A DNA stretch of 64,000 nt, from assembly GCA_910587795.1 (NCBI GenBank), contig CAJUNH010000002.1:67346-131345 (forward strand). Direction: 5' to 3'. This DNA is from an uncultured Christensenellaceae bacterium (GTDB lineage: Bacteria; Bacillota; Clostridia; Christensenellales; CAG-314). The translations under genes were made by a program, and so were the position numbers. Numbering within the stretch: position 1 is the first letter of the stretch; every line of letters starts with the position of its first letter. The notes under the pieces are model-generated. The model had not been told where the DNA came from. It saw only the letters and a program-made list of their open reading frames with translations, and searched no databases. Below are positions 5,401 through 47,538 of this stretch, piece after piece.

Positions 5401-6567
5401 ATAGTTAGCAAGAGTAAACGCACATACGGGCAAATAATAGTCGCCGTAATCTCGCGTAACGTTTTCCATTACGCCCGCCGCTTCGGTATGTACCTTATCA
5501 AAAGAAACCGTTGCCGTTTCGCCTTGTACGTACTCTGTTAACGCATAAAATTCAAATTGATATTTTGTAGTATCCGTCGGCAGACTTGCCGCCAACTGAA
5601 AGTTAGAACTGCTGAAATAAATATACTTGTTTCCTTTTAAATAAAATCTATAGGGAACGTTTTCTAATGTTGTAAATTGCAAGGACGCAGACGAACTGCT
5701 GCTTTCGGCAGAAATGAAATTTCCGTTTGCGCCAAGATACTTGCCTTTGGCTTTATCGCCTACAAAGCAAAAGTTAATTTGGTTTGCTGAAGTACGCGTA
5801 GCCGTCCACACAACAAGGGCTTCATTGGTATTTTTAACCTCTAGGTCCAAATATTTGCCGTCGCTAAAAATATCGTATGCCGCGCCGAAACCGCCGGAAC
5901 TTGTAGCACCCAGCGCAGTAAGCTTTGTTCCGGTGTTTCCAACCAAAATACCGGTTACCGATTCACCAACGGTAAGCTCCGTCAACGAAGTCTTTGTGTA
6001 GCGCATTTCGGCTCCGCCTGTCGCCGCTTGCCGTACAAAAATTAAAAACTTCGTAGAATCCCAATCATCCATAGCATATCCGGAATTACTTCCAACAACC
6101 GCTCTGCCGTTAGTTGCATATAAATAGTTAGTGCTGCCGTCCAACGTACTTGCCGAATTACTTAAAGATACGCTGTTGTATGCATAAAGCTTATTATAGC
6201 TTGCGGAAGCAAGCGATTCGATCTCAACGTCGGTATCGCCGGCACTTACGATTTTCCACAGCAATTTATTGTCAACGTTGGTTTTTGACGCGTCGATTTT
6301 AGTATCGTTATCCTGCAAATAAACTTCCGTAACAGTAACAGAACTGCCCGACGCCGTCATAGCATAATAGCCAGTGCCTGATTTATGCACTATCATCGCT
6401 ACGTCGGCAGCAGGAATATTTTTTTCCGCGGACAACACGTAATCGTACATTTCCGCGGCTTGCGCAGGGGGGGGCGTTGCAGCGGACAGCGCAACGGCAA
6501 GCAGCAACGCGGAAAAACAAACTACTGCCAATGTTACTTTTAGCAATAGGTTTATTTTCTTTGCCAT
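2413..6567 (-). CDS. Large surface protein (1384 aa): signal peptide, beta-rich N-terminal region, about nine Listeria-Bacteroides (Flg_new-type) repeats, Ala/Lys/Glu-rich helical repeats, C-terminal TM tail anchor
   Basis: AGGAGG 7 nt upstream of the ATG. Signal peptide ending AQA. Recurrent G(Y/F)xFxGW...(L/V)xAxW repeat endings. C-terminus LTAEQKEQL...VVFSVTATAAMLAFAAWIAKRRMF. No LPXTG. Confidence 0.85.
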   Translation of the reverse strand: MAKKINLLLKVTLAVVCFSALLLAVALSAATPPPAQAAEMYDYVLSAEKNIPAADVAMIVHKSGTGYYAMTASGSSVTVTEVYLQDNDTKIDASKTNVDNKLLWKIVSAGDTDVEIESLASASYNKLYAYNSVSLSNSASTLDGSTNYLYATNGRAVVGSNSGYAMDDWDSTKFLIFVRQAATGGAEMRYTKTSLTELTVGESVTGILVGNTGTKLTALGATSSGGFGAAYDIFSDGKYLDLEVKNTNEALVVWTATRTSANQINFCFVGDKAKGKYLGANGNFISAESSSSSASLQFTTLENVPYRFYLKGNKYIYFSSSNFQLAASLPTDTTKYQFEFYALTEYVQGETATVSFDKVHTEAAGVMENVTRDYGDYYLPVCAFTLANYKFAGWQVNGEGEILPVGAAINLTENITLKAVWDYNCIDVTYRMDGKEDVVKSYTKNSSGLNYWKAPDVSEIFTDYQVGEDEYFLGWKSGDTLYVAGNSTNIKDNLVLTAELTQSVTIRFDANGGEFNSDTYKNDIKGGVGQKYRLPSQSSAAKQGYVLKGFTVGQDETIVSCGSTIDITADTVITAQWKFDGYSLHFVVEGETVHTAEIARTSTSYSIDVNDPVKEGYKFLGWLLDNGTTYLKKGGIIYRSTLEKLDNEEGTLVAQFEKIEYVNVIFHLGTKTETVEIEKSTTSTNFNLQSVDTYFSDWKEYGDRFEGWATNPELTGTFVSNGWKIISEDTHYYAVVVQSYTVTFVYGTGVDDDTRSGTERNPVAVPYDGEKTRRERYTFMGWTSAEGGAVVEYEAKYGVTVDHECTLYAVWRYDYKKVVIEVVNDGKTEIIDTEVLMRDKTQFTLDEVLTELTDAQKELFAVSEHRTAKWVNTADMREISATDKITYPAGKDEQTGEDKFVTLRVTITDKLYTIKFEQPGDKPIESIQAKFGADISGLKPADPVRAGYEFISWNLEGKVFDWTTMPGKNISLVGIWKALPSTLKFDLNGGTTADGAAYLTDITLNSAERFDKPANPVKEGYDFVCWTLNGEEYRWTKADTTETYYGTMPGGTNTLVAVWELNHENRVALKEELTAAMTAYAREKGVEVPLNDMDKPATDTEAKIRKIYADVIEIIDYKAAVLDEVNAYAQRFNITLTASETFALRDAKDKTAADEQKALLKSLVDIRVLAAAKADAKAAIEAAATENGVEAPDVNAQIDEAATIDEVNEIKAAALAEIALNKAKADAKAELSAYAAEKKVSAPASLAEAIDKAATKQAVAEALTAGKAEIDRLAGSLTPTPDEDKEVTQAKAAVTAAINASGVKDAIDKIAKAQAAIEKLTAEQKEQLDLTAFNVKIAEVEAKVNGAKADLEGARKVANSVVFSVTATAAMLAFAAWIAKRRMF

Positions 6568-38846: not shown

Positions 38847-39311
38847 TTAACTTTTAGTATTTCTCTTAGACTTAAAATATTCGGTCAAAATCTGCGAGCA
38901 TTCGCCGTCTAAAATTCCGCCGCGTATTAAAAGCTCGTGGTTTAACGTGCGCCCCACCATTTCCGCAATAGGAACACATCCGTTACCGCTGACGTCGTAC
39001 GCACCGAAGTACAAATTAGATATTCGCGCATTGTAGCACGCACCAAGACACATAACGCAAGGTTCCAGCGTTACGTACAAATCGCAGCCCGTAAGCCGCC
39101 AGTCGTTAAGTTTACGGCAAGCGCGCCGTATTGCCGTAAGTTCCGCGTGTTCCGCGGCATTGCGCGATTTATTGCGGGCGTTGCGGGCGCGTGCAATCAC
39201 TGCGCCGTCTTTTACCACCACTGCGCCTATCGGCACCTCGTCGTACCTTTGCGCAATCCGCGCTTGCTTTAACGCCTCGCGCATAAATTTTTCCCGTTCC
39301 GTTGCTGCCAT
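38847..39311 (-). CDS. tadA: tRNA-specific adenosine deaminase
   Basis: CDA zinc motifs HAELTAIR and LEPCVMCLGA. 154 aa. Its ATG shares a base with the GH2 stop (TAATG). Confidence 0.9.
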   Translation of the reverse strand: MAATEREKFMREALKQARIAQRYDEVPIGAVVVKDGAVIARARNARNKSRNAAEHAELTAIRRACRKLNDWRLTGCDLYVTLEPCVMCLGACYNARISNLYFGAYDVSGNGCVPIAEMVGRTLNHELLIRGGILDGECSQILTEYFKSKRNTKS

Positions 39312-41044
39312 TATAATTTGATTTTTTTATTTAATTCCCTGATCATATCGGGATCTGCCTTTAAAATTTTTCTGTCGTACGTGTACAAACCGTTTACTTC
39401 GTCCTCCACGTCGCTTACCTGCGTGTATACCGCTGCCGACAAACCTTTGTCTATCCAGTTGATTACGTCGCGTTGATACAGTTGGTAAATACCGTCGTTA
39501 AACGCGTCTAGACTGTCAAACCTTTTGTAACTGAAAGTACGGTCGGGATTAAAACTGTGAGCCGTATCCTTATAGCTGTAACCGCCGAACTCCGTAAGAC
39601 ACACGGCGCGGTTTTTGTCCTTGTTTAAATGCACCTTTTTAAAATAAACGTGCATACTGTTGATATCGCCGCCCCCCTGATCGTGCCATCCGCTGGCGTG
39701 GTCGACGGTACGGGTCGGGTCGATATCTCGGGTTAAAGCTGCAATTTTGTTTGCGTCGAATTGCCCCCAGGCTTCGTTAAACGGCACCCACATAGCAATA
39801 CTGACGCAATTATAAAGCTGATCTAACATCTCGGTGTATTCGGCGACAAACGTATCGCGGCTTTGCTCGCTCTTGCGGGAAAACCTTGCGTAATTGCTGT
39901 CCTTTAAGCGATTTACGCCGATATTAGGCAAAATCAACGTAACCCATTTATGCTGTTTTGTTCCGCCGCTGGGCATATCCTGCCAAACAAGCATGCCAAG
40001 TCTGTCGCAATGATAATACCAGCGCATAGGCTCCACCTTAATATGTTTACGCAGCATATTAAAGCCTAAATCTTTCATTGCTTTTATGTCGAAAGCCAAC
40101 GCCTCGTCGCTGGGTGCGGTATAAAGTCCGTCGCTGTAATAGCCTTGATCCAACAGTCCGTTGTGAAAATACGGCGCGTTATTTAACATTAAACGGTGAT
40201 ATCTGCCCGCTTTTTCGCAAGCAAACTTACGCATACCGAAATAACTTTTAACTGCGTCCCTGCGGGAAATAATCTTTAAATCGTACAGAAACGGATCTTC
40301 GGGAGACCAAAGCCTAAACGCCTCGTTGGGAAAGATCAGTTTAATAGCCCCCTTTCCGTCGGCGCGGATAATCTCCTTATCGCCGTCCAGCACTTTTACG
40401 GTGACAGGTTCGTCAAAGTTTGTCATTGCTTCCACAGTGACCGACGCGTCGTCTATATTAGGAGTAATGCGCAAACCCTGAATATACTGTGCGGGGACGC
40501 TTTCCAACCATACCGTTTGCCAAATTCCGCTTTGCGGAGTGTACCACATACCGCCGCGCTTTAAAGACTGTTTTCCGTTGGCGTAGTACTTTGTATCGGT
40601 ATAGTCGCGTACTTTTACAATCAACTCGTTTGTTTCGGCAAGAGCTTGGGTTATATCCACGCTGAAAGCGTTGTAACCTCCTTCGTGACGGCATAAGTGC
40701 ATTTTGTTAACGTATACGTCGCAAATGCAATCCACCGCGCCGAAATTAAGCAGAACAACGTCTTTTACAAAACTTTTAGCCAGCGAAAAGTTTGTACGGT
40801 AGTACAAAAATTCGTTGGGTTTAAGCACGCGGTTTACGCCCGACAGCGTTGTTTCGGGCGAAAACGGCACTAAAATTTTGCCGTCAAATTTTGTGGGGAT
40901 ATCGTCGCGCTTGGTTATTGCGTATTCCCACCATCCGTTAAGATTTACGTAACTGTTACGCACAAATTGCGGACGGGGATATTCCTGCAAAGGTTTATCC
41001 GTTATTTTTTCGCCCCATACGGTTGTAAGTTGCTGCAATGCCAT
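39311..41044 (-). CDS. Glycoside hydrolase family 2 (beta-galactosidase/beta-glucuronidase-like)
   Basis: GH2-type N-terminal sugar-binding region (YPRPQFVRNSYVNLNGWWEY), TIM-barrel segment NMLRKHIKVEP...LGMLVWQDMP and acid/base region WVPFNEAWG. I moved the start to ATG 41044 (GGAGG 8 nt upstream); the track's 41053 start is a GTG inside the RBS. Confidence 0.8.
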   Translation of the reverse strand: MALQQLTTVWGEKITDKPLQEYPRPQFVRNSYVNLNGWWEYAITKRDDIPTKFDGKILVPFSPETTLSGVNRVLKPNEFLYYRTNFSLAKSFVKDVVLLNFGAVDCICDVYVNKMHLCRHEGGYNAFSVDITQALAETNELIVKVRDYTDTKYYANGKQSLKRGGMWYTPQSGIWQTVWLESVPAQYIQGLRITPNIDDASVTVEAMTNFDEPVTVKVLDGDKEIIRADGKGAIKLIFPNEAFRLWSPEDPFLYDLKIISRRDAVKSYFGMRKFACEKAGRYHRLMLNNAPYFHNGLLDQGYYSDGLYTAPSDEALAFDIKAMKDLGFNMLRKHIKVEPMRWYYHCDRLGMLVWQDMPSGGTKQHKWVTLILPNIGVNRLKDSNYARFSRKSEQSRDTFVAEYTEMLDQLYNCVSIAMWVPFNEAWGQFDANKIAALTRDIDPTRTVDHASGWHDQGGGDINSMHVYFKKVHLNKDKNRAVCLTEFGGYSYKDTAHSFNPDRTFSYKRFDSLDAFNDGIYQLYQRDVINWIDKGLSAAVYTQVSDVEDEVNGLYTYDRKILKADPDMIRELNKKIKL

Positions 41045-41339
41045 AATATGCACCTCCGCTTGCCTGCAAAATACCGCGATAATAGCTTAACAAGCGCAGA
41101 CGCAGTACTTTGTTACGATATATTTTAACACAAGTTTTTAATAATGTAAACAGTAACGCGGAAACAGATTGACGTCAGCTTACAAATAAACTCGTGTTCC
41201 TCAAAAAACTTTTATAATCATTAAACGATTTATTTTATTAAAAAACTCGCTGATTTTTAACGCTGCGTTTTAAACCGCATATGCATTTTATAATCGCAAC
41301 AACTTTACAAAATATTTTCCGTAGAAATTCTGCTAATAT

Positions 41340-41400: not shown

Positions 41401-42990
41401 TTACTTTTTTGCTTTGGCAGTCGTTTTGGCGGTTGAGGTTTTTGCCGTTGTTTTTTTAACGGGAGTTTTTTTCTCTGCGGCGGAAGCCGTCTTTTCCTTA
41501 CTTGCCGCTTTTTCCTCTCCGGCAACGGTTACGCTGCCGATGGCAATGCGCTTTGCAGACGCTTTATCAAACAGTATAATTCCCTTGCCGACAATTTCGT
41601 AATGCAAATCGCTGTTTACGGGATAGTCCACGCCGCCGAATACGACTGCGGTTAAGATATCCTTACCGATAACCAGTTTGACGGTCGTTTCCATACCGGT
41701 AGGCAGCGTAGCGTAAACTTTACCTACCATACTGCCCTGTTCCACGCGTAAAAATTCCGGACGGACGCCTACCACGACAGGTATTTCGCCTTCCCCTTCG
41801 ATTGCATCGTTTGAATGGAAAGTAAACTTTGCGCCCAACACATCTAATTCTGCGGCAGCGCCGTTTATTTTAGCGGTACCGTTAATAAAGTTCATTGTAG
41901 GATTGCCTACAAAGTCCGCAACAAACAAATTGTTGGGGTAGTTGTATGTGTCGAGAGGGGGATCGTACTGTTGAAGATGACCCATACTCATAAGGCAAAC
42001 CTTCGTTGCCAAAGTCATGGCTTCCAACTGGTCGTGAGTAACGTATACAAAGGTAGAATCGGTTTCGGCGTGCAGACGTTTAAGTTCGGTACGCATTTCC
42101 AAACGCAGTTTTGCGTCCAAGTTACTTAACGGTTCGTCCATAAACAGCACTTTGGGACTGGTTGCAAGGGTACGCGCAATAGCCACGCGCTGCTGCTGTC
42201 CGCCCGAAAGTTCGGCAGGATAACGGTGCATAAATATACCGATTTTAAGTATACGCGCCACTCTGCGGACTTCTATGTCCATTTCTTCTTTGCACAGTTT
42301 GCGTTCCTTTTCCACTACCGCGCCGTCTTTGACGTACTCAAACTTTTCGTTAAGTTCCATACCGTCTTTCGCAGCTGCCGCCTTAGCGCTTTCGATAGTC
42401 GCTTTTAAGTCGTCTACGGCTTTTGCAACTACTTCTTCCGGGTTCGGAACGGTATGTAAGTTGTAGCCGTAAACCTTTTTTGCAGTATACATAGAAATTG
42501 TATAACTGTCTATAAGATCAAGCATCAAGGCTTTTGAATCGAACTTACCTTCGTCGTCCTTTGCGGAATTAACTTTTTCTACAATTTCCCGCCAATTATC
42601 CAACAGTTCGATAATGCGAGCGGCAACGCGTGCCTCGTGCGCGACAACGGGCTTTTTTTCTTTAACGTTTTCCAAACCGAAATGTATGTTTTGGTAAACG
42701 GTCATATGCGGCCACAAAGCGTAGTTTTGAAACAGGAAACCGATATCGCGCTTGCCGGGAGCAACGCTGATACCTTTTTCGCTGTCAAATACTACGGTAT
42801 CGCCGATTGTAATACGTCCCTCGGTGGGAGTTTCCAAACCGGCAATCATACGCAGCGTAGTGGTTTTACCGCAGCCGGACGGACCTAATAACGTTACAAA
42901 GTCGCGGTCTTCGATTACCATATTAAGATCTTCTACCGCAACAAATTTATCAAATCTTTTTGTTACATGCTCTAATACAATTTTTGGCAT
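41401..42990 (-). CDS. ABC importer ATP-binding protein (MalK/UgpC/FbpC-like with TOBE-type C-domain), carrying an insertion of about 120 aa and a Lys/Thr/Ala-rich tail
   Basis: Walker A GPSGCGKT, Q-loop FLFQNY, LSGGQQQRVAIARTL, LFMDEPLSNLD, VTHDQ. The Q-loop to signature distance is about 173 aa (about 52 in MalK). Tail ...KKTPVKKTTAKTSTAKTTAKAKK. Confidence 0.85.
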   Translation of the reverse strand: MPKIVLEHVTKRFDKFVAVEDLNMVIEDRDFVTLLGPSGCGKTTTLRMIAGLETPTEGRITIGDTVVFDSEKGISVAPGKRDIGFLFQNYALWPHMTVYQNIHFGLENVKEKKPVVAHEARVAARIIELLDNWREIVEKVNSAKDDEGKFDSKALMLDLIDSYTISMYTAKKVYGYNLHTVPNPEEVVAKAVDDLKATIESAKAAAAKDGMELNEKFEYVKDGAVVEKERKLCKEEMDIEVRRVARILKIGIFMHRYPAELSGGQQQRVAIARTLATSPKVLFMDEPLSNLDAKLRLEMRTELKRLHAETDSTFVYVTHDQLEAMTLATKVCLMSMGHLQQYDPPLDTYNYPNNLFVADFVGNPTMNFINGTAKINGAAAELDVLGAKFTFHSNDAIEGEGEIPVVVGVRPEFLRVEQGSMVGKVYATLPTGMETTVKLVIGKDILTAVVFGGVDYPVNSDLHYEIVGKGIILFDKASAKRIAIGSVTVAGEEKAASKEKTASAAEKKTPVKKTTAKTSTAKTTAKAKK

Positions 42991-43020: not shown

Positions 43021-44898
43021 TTAACCGCCTACGCCCTTATCGATCGACGCGCCGGTAAGTTTATTCGCGGCAAAGTTGATTATAAGAACGGTAACGATAA
43101 TCAACAAGTTTAACGCGTTTGCAGACTGTGTCCACCAAGCCGTCCACTCATCGAGCAACGTTGCGAGTAATTGCGTTCCGGGAGCGACCAATAAAACGAA
43201 CAGCGACAATTCTCTCATACAAGACGTAAAAGGAAGCAGATATCCCGACATAAACGTCGATTTTTGTATGGGGAAAATAATGCGTACCATACGTTTCCAC
43301 CAAGGAACGTTCATCATTACCGCCGCTTCCTCTATTTCTCCGCTTAACTGTAACATCGCGTTTATACCGCTGCGCGAAGCAAACGGCAAGTATTTAACCG
43401 CGCCTACAAGGACAAGTATTAGGAAGGAATTTGTCAAGCCGAAGGTTGTTGCCATTGTTAAGAAAGCTCCGCCCAATGCCAGCGACGGTAACAGGTACGG
43501 CACAAACGCCAACGTATCTACAGATTTTGAAAGCACGCTTCCGCGCCGTTTTGCAACCGCATAACCGATTAGAATACCGCTTGTACCGGCTATTATCGCG
43601 CACAACACGGACAGCAGCAAACTGTTACCGAAAGCGCTCCAAATTTTATCTTCGAAGAACAAGCCTTTCAACCCGTTTTCCGAACCCGTCATTTCGCGCG
43701 AAATCCAATAATCCAACGTCATTTGACTGTAATCGCCGGGGTGTACGCAGCAGGATTCCAAAGCGAAGGTTACTAACGGCATTACCGCAAAGAATAGGCT
43801 TAAAAAACAAATTACAATACAGGCGGCCCATTTGCCCCATTTAAGATCGATATAGGAAATCTGTCCCGATTTGCCTGATACCGTCGTAAAGGACTTACGC
43901 TTGCCTGTAATATATTGGTTAACCATCAATATTGCAATACCGAAGATAATCATTACCAAGCCCATAATATAGCTTTGTCCGTACAGCTGTTTACCGATAA
44001 AGCTCTTCATGTACGTTGTAATAAAATATCTTACGCTTCCGTCGCCGGTTGTACCCGCCAAATATCTGGGTACGGCATATGCGCTCATACTGCTGGAAAA
44101 TACCAACAAAAACGTTGATACCAATGCGGGAAGCACGATAGGAATCGTAATTCTTCTAATAATTTTTGCTCGGTTCGCCTTTAATACGGTTGCCGCTTCT
44201 TCCAAGTTTGCGTCCATATTACGTAAAGTACCGCCGATAAGGATATACGCGAAAGGCGCGTAATGCAATCCTAAAACGATAGCGCAGGGAATAACTCCGT
44301 AAACAAAACCTTCGGAAACTTTTATTCCAAGCAAATTGTACATCATTCCGCCCGTACCCGTGCCGATATCGGGGTTTTGCCAAAAGTTTTGCCAAAACGT
44401 AGCCAACGTCCAACTGGGCATTATGTACGGAAAGATAAAAACGGTAGAGATGATTTTTTTACCCTTCATATTTGTACGGGTAATAAAAAACGCCACTACG
44501 CCGCCATATATAATAGCAATTATGCTTGCCAGCATTGCCATTAAAACCTGCCTGCCGAGCGGAGTCCAAAAGTACATATCCGCGTAATCGGAAACAATTA
44601 GACGATTCCACCATTTGGTAGTAAAAGAACCTACGGGTTTGCCGGGGTCATAGATACCTTCCGACGGGGAATTTATCATAAACGTTTCCACAATCATTGT
44701 GAATAACGGATAAAAAATCAAAAATGCCAACGCCAATGCAAACACAACCAAAATAACGTTTGCCGGACTGGAAAAAAATCTTTTTGTGGTATACCACATT
44801 TTTTGACCTGCTGTGGCTTTACGTTCAAAACCACCGTCTAAAATTTCATTTGGAATCTGCGGAATATCGTTTTTAGGAGAATTTTTTTCTTTTTTCAT
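43021..44898 (-). CDS. Fused ABC importer permease (625 aa, two tandem type-1 transmembrane domains, about 12 TM helices)
   Basis: AGGAGG RBS. Two internally similar halves, each with a multi-TM core. Positioned between the binding-protein and ATPase genes. Confidence 0.8.
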   Translation of the reverse strand: MKKEKNSPKNDIPQIPNEILDGGFERKATAGQKMWYTTKRFFSSPANVILVVFALALAFLIFYPLFTMIVETFMINSPSEGIYDPGKPVGSFTTKWWNRLIVSDYADMYFWTPLGRQVLMAMLASIIAIIYGGVVAFFITRTNMKGKKIISTVFIFPYIMPSWTLATFWQNFWQNPDIGTGTGGMMYNLLGIKVSEGFVYGVIPCAIVLGLHYAPFAYILIGGTLRNMDANLEEAATVLKANRAKIIRRITIPIVLPALVSTFLLVFSSSMSAYAVPRYLAGTTGDGSVRYFITTYMKSFIGKQLYGQSYIMGLVMIIFGIAILMVNQYITGKRKSFTTVSGKSGQISYIDLKWGKWAACIVICFLSLFFAVMPLVTFALESCCVHPGDYSQMTLDYWISREMTGSENGLKGLFFEDKIWSAFGNSLLLSVLCAIIAGTSGILIGYAVAKRRGSVLSKSVDTLAFVPYLLPSLALGGAFLTMATTFGLTNSFLILVLVGAVKYLPFASRSGINAMLQLSGEIEEAAVMMNVPWWKRMVRIIFPIQKSTFMSGYLLPFTSCMRELSLFVLLVAPGTQLLATLLDEWTAWWTQSANALNLLIIVTVLIINFAANKLTGASIDKGVGG

Positions 44899-44973
44899 TC
44901 TTTTCCTCCTTTTAAAAATATCGGGGGAGCGGGACTGTCTCGCTCCCCCTGGTTTTATACAACTTAATTTTTC

Positions 44974-46494
44974 TTATTTGCCGGAAAGTTTTTTATTGAT
45001 CCAGTCTTCAACGTCAGCTTTAACCGAAAGGATATAAGCACCGTCTTCAACTACAAGATTTTCCGTCCAGAAAGACAATTCGGAGTCTTTAATAGTAGAG
45101 ATAGTAGCCGTCTTTACAGAAGCTTTAAAATCTTTTTGAGCATCGCCTACCGTGATTTGAGTCGCTTTTCCAGTTTCACGGTCAATATCAGTGATAGTTG
45201 TTCCGTCTGCAAGATATTTGTAAGTTTTAATCGTTACGTCCTTGCCGCCGATAGAAACTTTTTCGCTCTTGATATAGCTCATTTCTTTTTTATTGTTATC
45301 AAGATAAACAAATCCGTCTTTCGATCCGTCTTTTTGATCTGCGGGCAATTCAACGGGTTTTGTCAGTTCGCCGGAGTAAACGGGAACGTCTTTATTGGCA
45401 GAATAACCGCCGAGAGATTTCCAAGGAGTAAATCCTTCTTCCGTCATCAAGTAATTGATAAACAGCATTGCCGTATAAGGACGGGGACCGTTGGTTGCAA
45501 GCTGAGCGTAAATGGAATACATAAATCCTGCAAACGGATCGATCTTCGTGAAATTGGTTGCTCCTTCTTCTTTGTCCCATGCGGAAACTTGAAGGTTATC
45601 TCCGTAAACAGAACTGTCGCGAAGCTTAGAAAGAACGAACAAACCCATCTTATCTTGGTTGTCGGCAGTAGAAAGCTTTTGTGCAATAGTTGTGTCGCTG
45701 TTGATAGAGAAGTTACAATTAGCTATAAATTCCGCAATCCATTTATAACCGTAGTTTGTGTATGTTTTACCTTTGCCTACGTCTTCGGCGGCTTTACCGT
45801 TGTTAAACGTTTTATAAGCCGTTTCGAGCTTCTTAGACCAATCTTCGCTTGTCAGCATAATTAAGAAGTTCATGTTTACTTGCTCTGAAGTAGGATCTTT
45901 AAAGAAAATTTTTCCTTTGTAATCCTCTTGAGTAAGCTGCCATACGTTTGAGAACTTACGGTTTGTATCTCCCGTTGTGTTATACATAAACAACTTGTTG
46001 ATAAATTGATGTGCAAGAGGCATCAAATTTGCTTCGTCGACTTTTTTGTCCATTCCCATGGGGATATAGTTGGTCAACATAGAGGTTGTGTTACGGTATT
46101 GCATTAACGTAGCGCTGTCCTGAATAAGTACGATGGAAGCGTTGCTGCTTTTGTTGGCGGCTTTCGATTCGGTATCCAACTTCTTATAAATATCGCCGTC
46201 GGAAAGTTTAGACGCCTTATTACCGCTAAGTCCCAAATCCTTACCGTACTTCGCGATAAAGTTGTCCATAGCGGTTGTAATACGGGAAGTATTTCCGTAA
46301 GCTACGAAATCGCCGCTTTCCTTTTTAGCTTCTTCTAGCAGCTGCTCCGTTGTCATTTTTTGTCCGGCTTCAACCGCTGCTTTTAAAATAGTATCATCTG
46401 TGCCGGGTCCGTTATTGCAGGCAACTAATAAGAATATTGCCGACAGAATCATGACCGAAGCAAGAATGATACTGAATACTTTTGTTTTTTTCAT
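44974..46494 (-). CDS. ABC transporter substrate-binding lipoprotein (506 aa), ligand unknown
   Basis: I moved the start to ATG 46494 (GGAG 7 nt upstream), giving MKKTKVFSIILASVMILSAIFLLVAC with a lipobox. The track's longer start lacks an RBS. Confidence 0.75.
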   Translation of the reverse strand: MKKTKVFSIILASVMILSAIFLLVACNNGPGTDDTILKAAVEAGQKMTTEQLLEEAKKESGDFVAYGNTSRITTAMDNFIAKYGKDLGLSGNKASKLSDGDIYKKLDTESKAANKSSNASIVLIQDSATLMQYRNTTSMLTNYIPMGMDKKVDEANLMPLAHQFINKLFMYNTTGDTNRKFSNVWQLTQEDYKGKIFFKDPTSEQVNMNFLIMLTSEDWSKKLETAYKTFNNGKAAEDVGKGKTYTNYGYKWIAEFIANCNFSINSDTTIAQKLSTADNQDKMGLFVLSKLRDSSVYGDNLQVSAWDKEEGATNFTKIDPFAGFMYSIYAQLATNGPRPYTAMLFINYLMTEEGFTPWKSLGGYSANKDVPVYSGELTKPVELPADQKDGSKDGFVYLDNNKKEMSYIKSEKVSIGGKDVTIKTYKYLADGTTITDIDRETGKATQITVGDAQKDFKASVKTATISTIKDSELSFWTENLVVEDGAYILSVKADVEDWINKKLSGK

Positions 46495-46543
46495 TTTTAT
46501 CTCCTTTTTATTTGGTTTTATAATTACGTCGTCTGCGGCGTAG

Positions 46544-47377
46544 TTACCTAAATTCAATACCGCTTTTTTGCATTTGCTCGGTTAGTCTGCGGTAAGACTT
46601 TTCCAAAAATTCCTCAACGGAAATCTTGTTAAAATAAATGCTGGTTTCGTTGCAGTAACTTTCTAAATTTAAACGCGGAACGTTATATTTTTTAAGTTTT
46701 GCAAACACTGCGTCGTAATTTATATTGCCTTCGCCCATTATATGGTGCTGATCCTGCGGCGTTCCCGAAGGTCCCTCGTTATCGTGAATGTGCGTTGTTA
46801 CCAGCATGCTTCCGTACTTGTCCAGCGGCTGTTCGTTAGGAGTATATGCATTGTGATGTCCGCTATCATAACAAAAACCTATATTAGGGCAGTTGGGAAA
46901 ATTTTCAAGAATAAAATCGTTATACCTTAAAAAACGTGTGTTTTCTATTGCGATTACAACGTTATTTTGCTGCGCCGCTTCCAACATTTCTGCAAAATTG
47001 ACCACGCCGTACCCGTTAGGTTCGGGCGTGACCGTCTTGCGCGTAAGGTGCAAAACCAAATTGCGTATGCCGCGTTCGCCGCACTCCTTGCACGCCGCAG
47101 CAAAATGCTCAACATATTTTTTGCCGCGTTCGCCGCCGTACCACAAATCGTCGGCGTTAGTCGACGGAAAGTGACAGGTATTTACTCCCAGTCCCAGTTC
47201 GGCTGCCAAATCAAACAATTCAAACCTTGTTCCGTCCGTTTGCTCGAATTCGTCGCCCCACCAAAACATAGTTTCGTCAAATCCCGCTTTTTTAATTGCG
47301 GCCATTCGTCTGCGAGGAGAAACCTCGTAAAACCCGCATCTAAAATTTTGTCCGGTTGTCGCCTTTTGTGTATTCAT
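46544..47377 (-). CDS. Sugar phosphate isomerase/epimerase-like protein (xylose isomerase-like TIM barrel family)
   Basis: Family-like segments VLHLTRK, VIAIENT, GFCYDSGHHN and THIHDNEG. Confidence 0.7.
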   Translation of the reverse strand: MNTQKATTGQNFRCGFYEVSPRRRMAAIKKAGFDETMFWWGDEFEQTDGTRFELFDLAAELGLGVNTCHFPSTNADDLWYGGERGKKYVEHFAAACKECGERGIRNLVLHLTRKTVTPEPNGYGVVNFAEMLEAAQQNNVVIAIENTRFLRYNDFILENFPNCPNIGFCYDSGHHNAYTPNEQPLDKYGSMLVTTHIHDNEGPSGTPQDQHHIMGEGNINYDAVFAKLKKYNVPRLNLESYCNETSIYFNKISVEEFLEKSYRRLTEQMQKSGIEFR

Positions 47378-47407
47378 TTCGGTAAATTTTTCCCACTTTA
47401 CTCAAAG

Positions 47408-47437
47408 AGTATACCCCCCCCCGTGGCTTGATGTCAA
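47408..47437 (-). promoter_or_regulatory. Candidate promoter of the TIM-barrel/ABC operon with a G9 tract inside the spacer
   Basis: Minus strand TTGACA (47437..47432), 18-nt spacer TCAAGCCACGGGGGGGGG, TATACT (47413..47408). ATG 47377 lies 30 nt downstream. Confidence 0.5.
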
Positions 47438-47538
47438 TAGCCGTTTGAAAAAATGAAAAAAACTACTAAAATTTTGCTATTGACAAAAATACAACAAAAT
47501 GAGTCATGTCGAAAACAGATTGAAAATTGATAAAAAGG

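Follow-up and report, generated by a model that had tools for sequence, protein, structure and literature searches.

The 64-kb window, i.e., the whole stretch of DNA analysed here, carries on its minus strand an operon whose first gene (window 46544..47377, −) encodes a 277-aa xylose-isomerase-like TIM barrel (PF01261). This protein has a weak likeness to the CbiR phosphodiesterase, IolI, and MJ1311, under the family cut-off in every case. It is followed by a putative lipoprotein substrate-binding protein of 527 aa (44974..46557, −), a 625-aa fused double ABC permease in which PF00528 is found twice (43021..44898, −; its nearest NCBIfam model is of the PhnU2 type and scores below cut-off), and a 529-aa MalK/UgpC-type ABC ATPase (41401..42990, −; PF00005 with MalK OB). 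A sequence-only reading of this DNA had described an operon for an isomerase, a binding protein, a permease, and an ATPase; family matches bear this out for the TIM barrel, the permease, and the ATPase, but not for the "binding protein". Sequence searches of Pfam, NCBIfam, and the PDB returned no relative of the 527-aa lipoprotein, which is putatively called a binding protein from its position and its lipoprotein-type N terminus alone and which possibly represents a new family of substrate-binding proteins. About 350 nt downstream of the ATPase gene there is a gene for a 580-aa GH2 glycosidase (39311..41053, −). It may be part of the uptake operon or may have its own promoter (TTTACA-17-TAAAAT at 41150-41122), and its presence hints at a glycoside as the substrate of the transporter.

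The predicted promoter of this operon is built as follows. Read on the minus strand, the promoter stretch is ctaTTGACAtcaagccacGGGGGGGGGTATACTctttgag, in which window positions 47437-47408 are TTGACA-tcaagccacGGGGGGGGG-TATACT. The −35 hexamer (47437-47432, −) is the consensus TTGACA with TA immediately 5′ of it, and the two together, TATTGACA, are identical throughout the orthologous and look-alike promoters. The spacer of 18 nt (47431-47414, −) is composed of a non-repetitive half, tcaagccac (47423..47431, −), which is 9 nt long in every orthologue with letters that vary by species, and of a G9 homopolymer (47414..47422, −; C9 on the plus strand), which supplies the final nine bases and adjoins the −10 hexamer TATACT (47408..47413, −; five of six positions agree with TATAAT). 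Further upstream, a T-rich block, TTTTTTTCATTTTTT (47448..47462, −; about −42 to −56), is kept in the orthologous promoters and seemingly resembles an UP element. Transcription is predicted to start at the purines 5 to 7 nt past the −10 box (47401..47403, −), and the ATG of the first gene (47377-47375, −) lies 30 nt past that box. A consensus scan puts the TTGACA/TATACT site first in the region (11 of 12 hexamer positions match); in an alignment of seven orthologous or look-alike promoters, the N9 half of the spacer differs and no variation is seen in TATTGACA, the G run, or TATACT. The promoter geometry reported earlier, i.e., TTGACA, an 18-nt spacer with nine G, TATACT, and 30 nt to the ATG, is therefore exact to the nucleotide. 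An Rfam search of the leader between promoter and ATG gave no match at E values up to 1, by which a riboswitch or a known leader RNA before the TIM-barrel ATG is ruled out.

Conspecific assemblies were gathered by exact-identity look-ups of the flanking proteins. Among 12 other assemblies of the same species with identical flanks, the run is G9 in eight (GCA_949089445, GCA_948665865, GCA_948699015, GCA_948698775, GCA_949045105, ERR4129512, ERR4084565, and ERZ14867584) and G8 in four (GCA_948770155, GCA_948740645, GCA_948801975, and SRR27143726). When the ten assemblies of the first look-up are aligned over 3.4 kb, no indel other than the G run recurs. G8 is found on the majority haplotype (L030) and also on two SNP-marked haplotypes (L025, L026), which implies at least two independent events. 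The earlier proposal that the tract is variable in nature is thus substantiated, by G8 and G9 within the species and by G10 in a sister species. Five further runs of the genome were checked by the same look-up approach. The run in a lipoprotein promoter (T5) is G10 in this genome, G9 in eight other assemblies, and G11 in one; that in the promoter of a gene for a DUF5722 protein (T14) is G10 in this genome, G10 in three others, and G9 in two, with G9 and G10 each seen together with either allele of a flanking SNP. The remaining three are G9 here and constant, i.e., T13 (G9 in four others), T1 (G9 in six others), and T10 (G9 in one other). Three of the six runs tested therefore vary in length, on several backgrounds. 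Counted together, with the two later-added assemblies at the operon promoter omitted, non-modal lengths make up 6 of 33 observations of G/C runs and 1 of 120 observations of A/T runs of 7 to 10 nt at the same loci (Fisher p = 4e-4).

Three minor observations belong with these comparisons. The sole length change of an A/T run in the 120 observations is a T7 to T8 change at about position 1572 of one locus (L045), where it splits the ABC-2 permease gene that comes next after the ABC ATPase of T13; either a true frameshift or a mistake of assembly may lie behind it. Contigs often begin or end within about 30 to 150 nt of a G run (the T5 loci L049-L056 and several genus contigs), and one (L053) starts exactly at the 3′ edge of the run; such breaks fit mixed lengths within samples and, equally, poor sequencing or coverage of G runs. 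Along with the homoplasy of run length against the SNPs, they give at most an indirect hint of reversible switching inside a population. A scan of metagenome contigs with both flanks and a free gap of 5 to 15 nt gave no match, in a contig set that may omit records close to this genome.

The run at the operon promoter is one of a class. In this genome of 1.545 Mb and 42% G+C there are 416 G/C runs of length 5, 21 of length 6, none of length 7, and then 6, 10, and 2 runs of lengths 8, 9, and 10, respectively. Extrapolated from the decay over lengths 3 to 6, the expected number of runs of at least 8 is far below one, and 18 were found; the gap at length 7 together with the second mode means that base composition cannot be their source and shows a genome-wide selection for long runs. 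Thirteen of the 18 long runs (8 to 10) are outside long ORFs, and in 11 of these 13 the next two bases, read on the sense strand of the downstream gene, are TA, i.e., they adjoin a −10-like box. The genes behind the promoter runs encode lipoproteins, a GLUG-motif protein, a DUF5722 protein, and two ABC ATPases, in addition to the TIM-barrel/ABC operon. Five runs are coding, in the genes of three large surface proteins, one C5 DNA methylase (PF00145), and one N6/N4 DNA methylase (PF01555). The look-alikes could have arisen from a mobile promoter cassette, but only subsets of them share upstream sequence, and at this genome's other G-run promoters the upstream sequence is unrelated. The cassette was therefore rejected, and common descent does not account for the class.

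Within the 64-kb window, the G9 is the sole C/G run of 9, and the only other run of at least 7 is a G8 at 6467-6474. The latter reads as C8 on the coding strand (+) and lies about 95 nt into a gene for a surface protein of about 1200 aa, in PPP codons just ahead of the signal-peptide cleavage region. Located inside the gene, it would cause a frameshift upon a change of ±1 and is thus a candidate translational on/off switch. Outside the window, two methyltransferase genes 2.3 kb apart carry in-frame G9 runs (C15:17098-17106 and C15:19382-19390), one in motif I (FSGGGG) of the C5 methylase and the other just ahead of the DPFAGSGTT motif of the N6/N4 methylase. Both are candidates for phase-variable methylases of the phasevarion type. 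An exact-identity look-up of the C5 methylase with the in-frame G9 returned no record.

The orthologous promoter was found in eight further species. Five of them have, before the orthologous TIM-barrel gene, TATTGACA-N9-G9-TAT(ACT/CAT), in which N9 differs and the run is kept; G9 is present in six of the nine species. One sister species has G10, one species has an interrupted run, GGGGAGGGG, in a spacer that is likewise 18 nt, and Candidatus Fimimonas merdipullorum, a more distant relative, has a G+C-rich spacer of 18 nt that lacks a run. Across the genus, the pattern TTGACA-N(6-12)-G8-TA was matched 121 times in 24 of 31 genomes (reversed control, 0), and elsewhere in the order in only 4 of 78 genomes. 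The number of such promoters is about 2 to 19 per genome of the genus, and in the relatives the genes behind them encode surface lipoproteins, sugar-uptake functions, and membrane proteins. The 121 runs are G8 (6), G9 (65), G10 (40), G11 (8), G12 (1), and G13 (1). For the 109 distinct promoters, in a search window that permitted 14 to 20 nt, the −35/−10 spacing is 14 nt in 2, 15 in 5, 16 in 11, 17 in 10, 18 in 47, 19 in 30, and 20 in 4. Multi-copy promoters within one genome are mostly equal in length, e.g., 11 copies of G10 in one genome (G043) and 4 copies of G10 in another (G009). The 11 promoters of G043 are near identical, TTGACACG(A/G)..AGAC-G10-TA, and several of them are located about 314 to 396 nt from contig ends, which suggests a multi-copy gene family or a mobile element that carries a G-run promoter.

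We next consider what spacing the polymerase of this organism prefers. The tract-less TTGACA/TATAAT-like promoters of this genome have spacers of 17 nt in 99 cases, 18 nt in 22, and 16 nt in 15 (reversed control, about 8), from which it follows that the polymerase has the usual preference and that G8 gives the canonical spacing. The sequence-only reading had taken 17 nt as the optimum, to be reached by loss of one G. The tract-less promoters of this genome agree with it on both points, but the G-tract promoters of the genus mostly have 18 to 19 nt, and the orthologues with an interrupted run or no run keep 18 nt too. Taken together, the 18 nt of these orthologues and the cluster at 18 to 19 nt in the genus suggest that G9 is probably the normal working state and not a detuned one.

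We consider that the G9 tract is probably a slippage-driven dial of expression. The run forms the 3′ half of the spacer of what would be a sigma-A-type promoter, TTGACA-N9-G9-TATACT, driving the TIM-barrel/ABC-uptake operon of an uncultured gut bacterium of the Christensenellales type (Clostridia). Slipped-strand mispairing during replication would add or remove a G, and the length of the run would set the −35/−10 distance, i.e., 17 nt with G8, 18 nt with G9, and 19 nt with G10. A changed distance would in turn alter the binding of RNA polymerase, and the outcome would be a heritable, reversible, and graded setting of the operon, a rheostat and not an on/off switch. The benefit may be a bet-hedging of nutrient uptake without a nearby regulator gene. 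A slipped-strand rheostat of this kind, in a real promoter and with graded expression of the operon, is in our judgment reasonably probable. It is well supported at the level of the DNA, from which we infer the transcription start, the effect on expression, the reversibility, and the benefit. The conserved promoter and the natural length polymorphism favor the rheostat as first put forward; two of its parts have to be amended, in that G9 does not seem impaired and the run is not a neutral spacer.

As to the mutability, MutS (an 877-aa frame) and MutL (a 652-aa frame) are encoded intact and adjacent in this genome, as in 12 of 13 genomes across the genus. Hypermutability through a loss of mismatch repair is thereby ruled out, and the mutability would rest on the run itself, as in Neisseria. 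Intact mismatch repair and the equal length of the multi-copy promoters together indicate that switching is probably moderate and not Campylobacter-like. Several observations weigh against a rheostat: intact MutS and MutL limit slippage rates; T1, T13, and T10 are invariant in 6, 4, and 1 other assemblies, respectively; the length calls come from short-read assemblies, which are error-prone at G runs; and the 18 nt of the tract-less and interrupted orthologues, together with G9 in six of nine species, may reflect a selection that holds one length.

The last of these leads to the best of the rival explanations, in which the G run is a fixed, sequence-specific element, i.e., a lineage-specific extended −10/spacer motif or a regulator site, whose length is under selection and for which the G8/G9 difference is incidental and slightly deleterious. 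The strand bias fits such an element well. Without exception the run adjoins the −10 box with its G on the sense strand; a search of the 31 genus genomes for the pattern with C in place of G gave no match, against 121 for the G run. With a bias of 121 to 0, the run has to be more than a neutral setter of length, and the notion that any homopolymer will do is ruled out; the orientation shows that the G run, as far as the promoter predictions go, is also a sequence-specific and orientation-specific promoter element. The narrow mode of its length (G9 or G10 in 105 of the 121), the AC dinucleotide directly 5′ of the run in 54 of 109 promoters, the constant lengths of T1 and T13, the equal lengths of the multi-copy promoters, and the 18-nt spacing kept in interrupted and tract-less orthologues all point in the same direction. 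So does the base composition of the tract-less promoters with 17-nt spacers, where C is rare at −13 to −16 (6 to 12 of 99) and position −14 is most often G (36 of 99). A pure run, on the other hand, seems needless for such an element, since one species has the interrupted GGGGAGGGG and another has no run in the same promoter. Equally long runs are found in the coding regions of surface proteins and methyltransferases, where a promoter role is impossible, and the length varies at three of the six tested runs on several backgrounds; the gap at length 7 is moreover the usual mark of contingency loci. On this balance we think it unlikely that the run is a fixed element and nothing else.

The strand bias and the rheostat may be brought together. 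A G run against the −10 box would supply G at −14/−13, a partial extended −10 contact, regardless of its length; it would thus give the favored G at −14 where a C run would give disfavored bases, which may account for the bias. More speculatively, G tracts are A-philic and under-twisted, and an under-twisted G block could give a spacer of 18 to 19 nt the geometry of 17 nt of mixed DNA. One may then envisage a lineage-specific promoter class, in which a block of G9 to G10, read by RNA polymerase in a single orientation, gives the −14 G, moves the working distance from 17 to 18-19 nt, and has spread to about 2 to 19 promoters per genome as the mutable phasome of a non-pathogenic gut commensal proficient in mismatch repair. 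The 121-to-0 bias, the modes at 18-19 nt with a run and at 17 nt without one, and the 18 nt of the G-rich tract-less orthologues are compatible with such a class, which we put forward tentatively and as a possibility with the odds still against it.

It could also be argued that the G8/G9 polymorphism is an artefact of sequencing or assembly and that the true tract is constant. Every length call indeed comes from short-read metagenome assemblies, some of them at 5 to 10x coverage, and the contigs that break at or beside G runs show that assemblers struggle there, although such breaks are equally expected from truly mixed lengths in a sample. We regard an artefact as quite improbable: other G9 runs are constant in the same set of assemblies (4 of 4 and 6 of 6), which makes the effect locus-specific, the four G8 assemblies stem from different pipelines (NCBI MAGs and Logan), and A/T runs of up to 10 nt are stable. 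That the site is not the operon promoter at all, with transcription starting elsewhere and the run having another role or none, finds some room in a start that is predicted, in a leader that would be as short as about 25 nt, and in a weak ribosome-binding site, but it is very improbable, given that other species keep both hexamers and the T-rich upstream block in the same place before the orthologous gene, that the 211-nt intergenic region holds no better candidate in the consensus scan, and that the upstream neighbor is a divergent dUTPase, from which read-through cannot supply the transcript, so that the operon promoter must sit in this intergenic region.

The slippage-driven rheostat, to which we return here, has several known relatives. 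In the phasome of Campylobacter jejuni and Helicobacter, as in this genome, the lengths of G/C runs are bimodal, with a class of 8 to 10 and almost nothing just below it; an excess of long runs with a gap beneath the functional class is found here too. The targets of those phasomes are surface structures, transport, and restriction-modification genes, and the runs of the present genome are tied to the same three kinds. Campylobacter is without MutS/MutL mismatch repair and most of its runs are intragenic, whereas here MutS and MutL are intact, so that the loss of mismatch repair that accompanies a phasome of that type is not seen, and most runs are in promoters; mismatch repair is kept here as it is in Neisseria and Haemophilus. 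A repeat in the −35/−10 spacer is also known from the vlp genes of Mycoplasma hyorhinis (poly-A) and from hifA/B of Haemophilus influenzae (TA repeats). There, length changes set the transcription of surface genes; the repeats are of another type than the G run described here, and those systems are on/off antigen switches in pathogens.

The closest likeness is to porA of Neisseria meningitidis and tp0126 of Treponema pallidum, in which a poly-G between −35 and −10 controls expression via the spacing (PMC7864442). The operon promoter, as predicted, likewise has a homopolymer between −35 and −10, the length of which differs between assemblies of the species far more often than the flanks do, as in genes of this type. 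In porA, as here, a G homopolymer of about 9 to 11 lies in a sigma-70-type spacer in a host proficient in mismatch repair, and slippage shifts the −35/−10 distance with graded expression (PMC7864442), an effect that at the present locus is predicted from the sequence. Comparable cases are opc and fetA, with poly-C. The differences are in the host, here a non-pathogenic, uncultured gut Firmicute; in the target, an uptake operon and not an outer-membrane antigen; and in the geometry, for here the run invariably abuts the −10 box with its G on the sense strand, and the modal spacing is 18 to 19 nt and not 17. The OmpW homologue tp0126 is expressed best at a 17-nt spacing, and tract lengths of 8 to 11 coexist, 9 being the commonest (PMC7864442). 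T. pallidum has, like the present genome, poly-G runs of about 7 to 12 before genes throughout the genome (tp0126, tprE/G/J/L) (PMC7864442); at tprE/G/J/L the run is just upstream of the transcription start, whereas here it is in a canonical spacer. The evidence in T. pallidum comprises fragment lengths and reporters, and here the lengths are known from differences between assemblies alone.

What we describe would therefore be a switch of a known kind, that of porA and tp0126, in a lineage new to it. In host-adapted pathogens such slipped-strand switches of promoters are textbook matter, but for the uncultured Clostridia that abound in the gut there is little documentation; our full-text literature searches found nothing linking such tracts to Christensenellaceae, and one on phase variation through repeats in metagenomes of gut Clostridia was equally empty. 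If the rheostat is real, a 1.5-Mb genome with few regulators near such operons would diversify its uptake and surface functions by mutation and not by sensing, and one-base indels at G runs in metagenomes would have to be read as functional states and not as noise. The strict orientation of the G strand and the shift of the spacing by +1/+2 also pose a clean question on spacer sequence and geometry at sigma-A promoters. The main interest is genus-wide, i.e., the bimodal runs, the 121-to-0 bias, and the +1/+2 shift, to which a lone promoter adds little.

Two features downstream in the operon are also worth recording. A 12-bp G+C-rich hairpin (window 44923-44949, GGGGGAGCGGGA...TCTCGCTCCCCC) is located between the binding-protein and permease genes; by analogy with other ABC operons, it is probably an intercistronic stabiliser or an attenuator that would let the binding protein exceed the other subunits. 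The ABC ATPase has an insertion of about 100 aa in its nucleotide-binding domain, placed after the Walker A/Q-loop part and before the signature motif, with the family models covering residues about 1 to 115 and 228 to 482, and its C terminus is a Lys/Ala/Thr-rich tail some 50 residues long; both the insertion and the tail are unusual for MalK/UgpC-type subunits.
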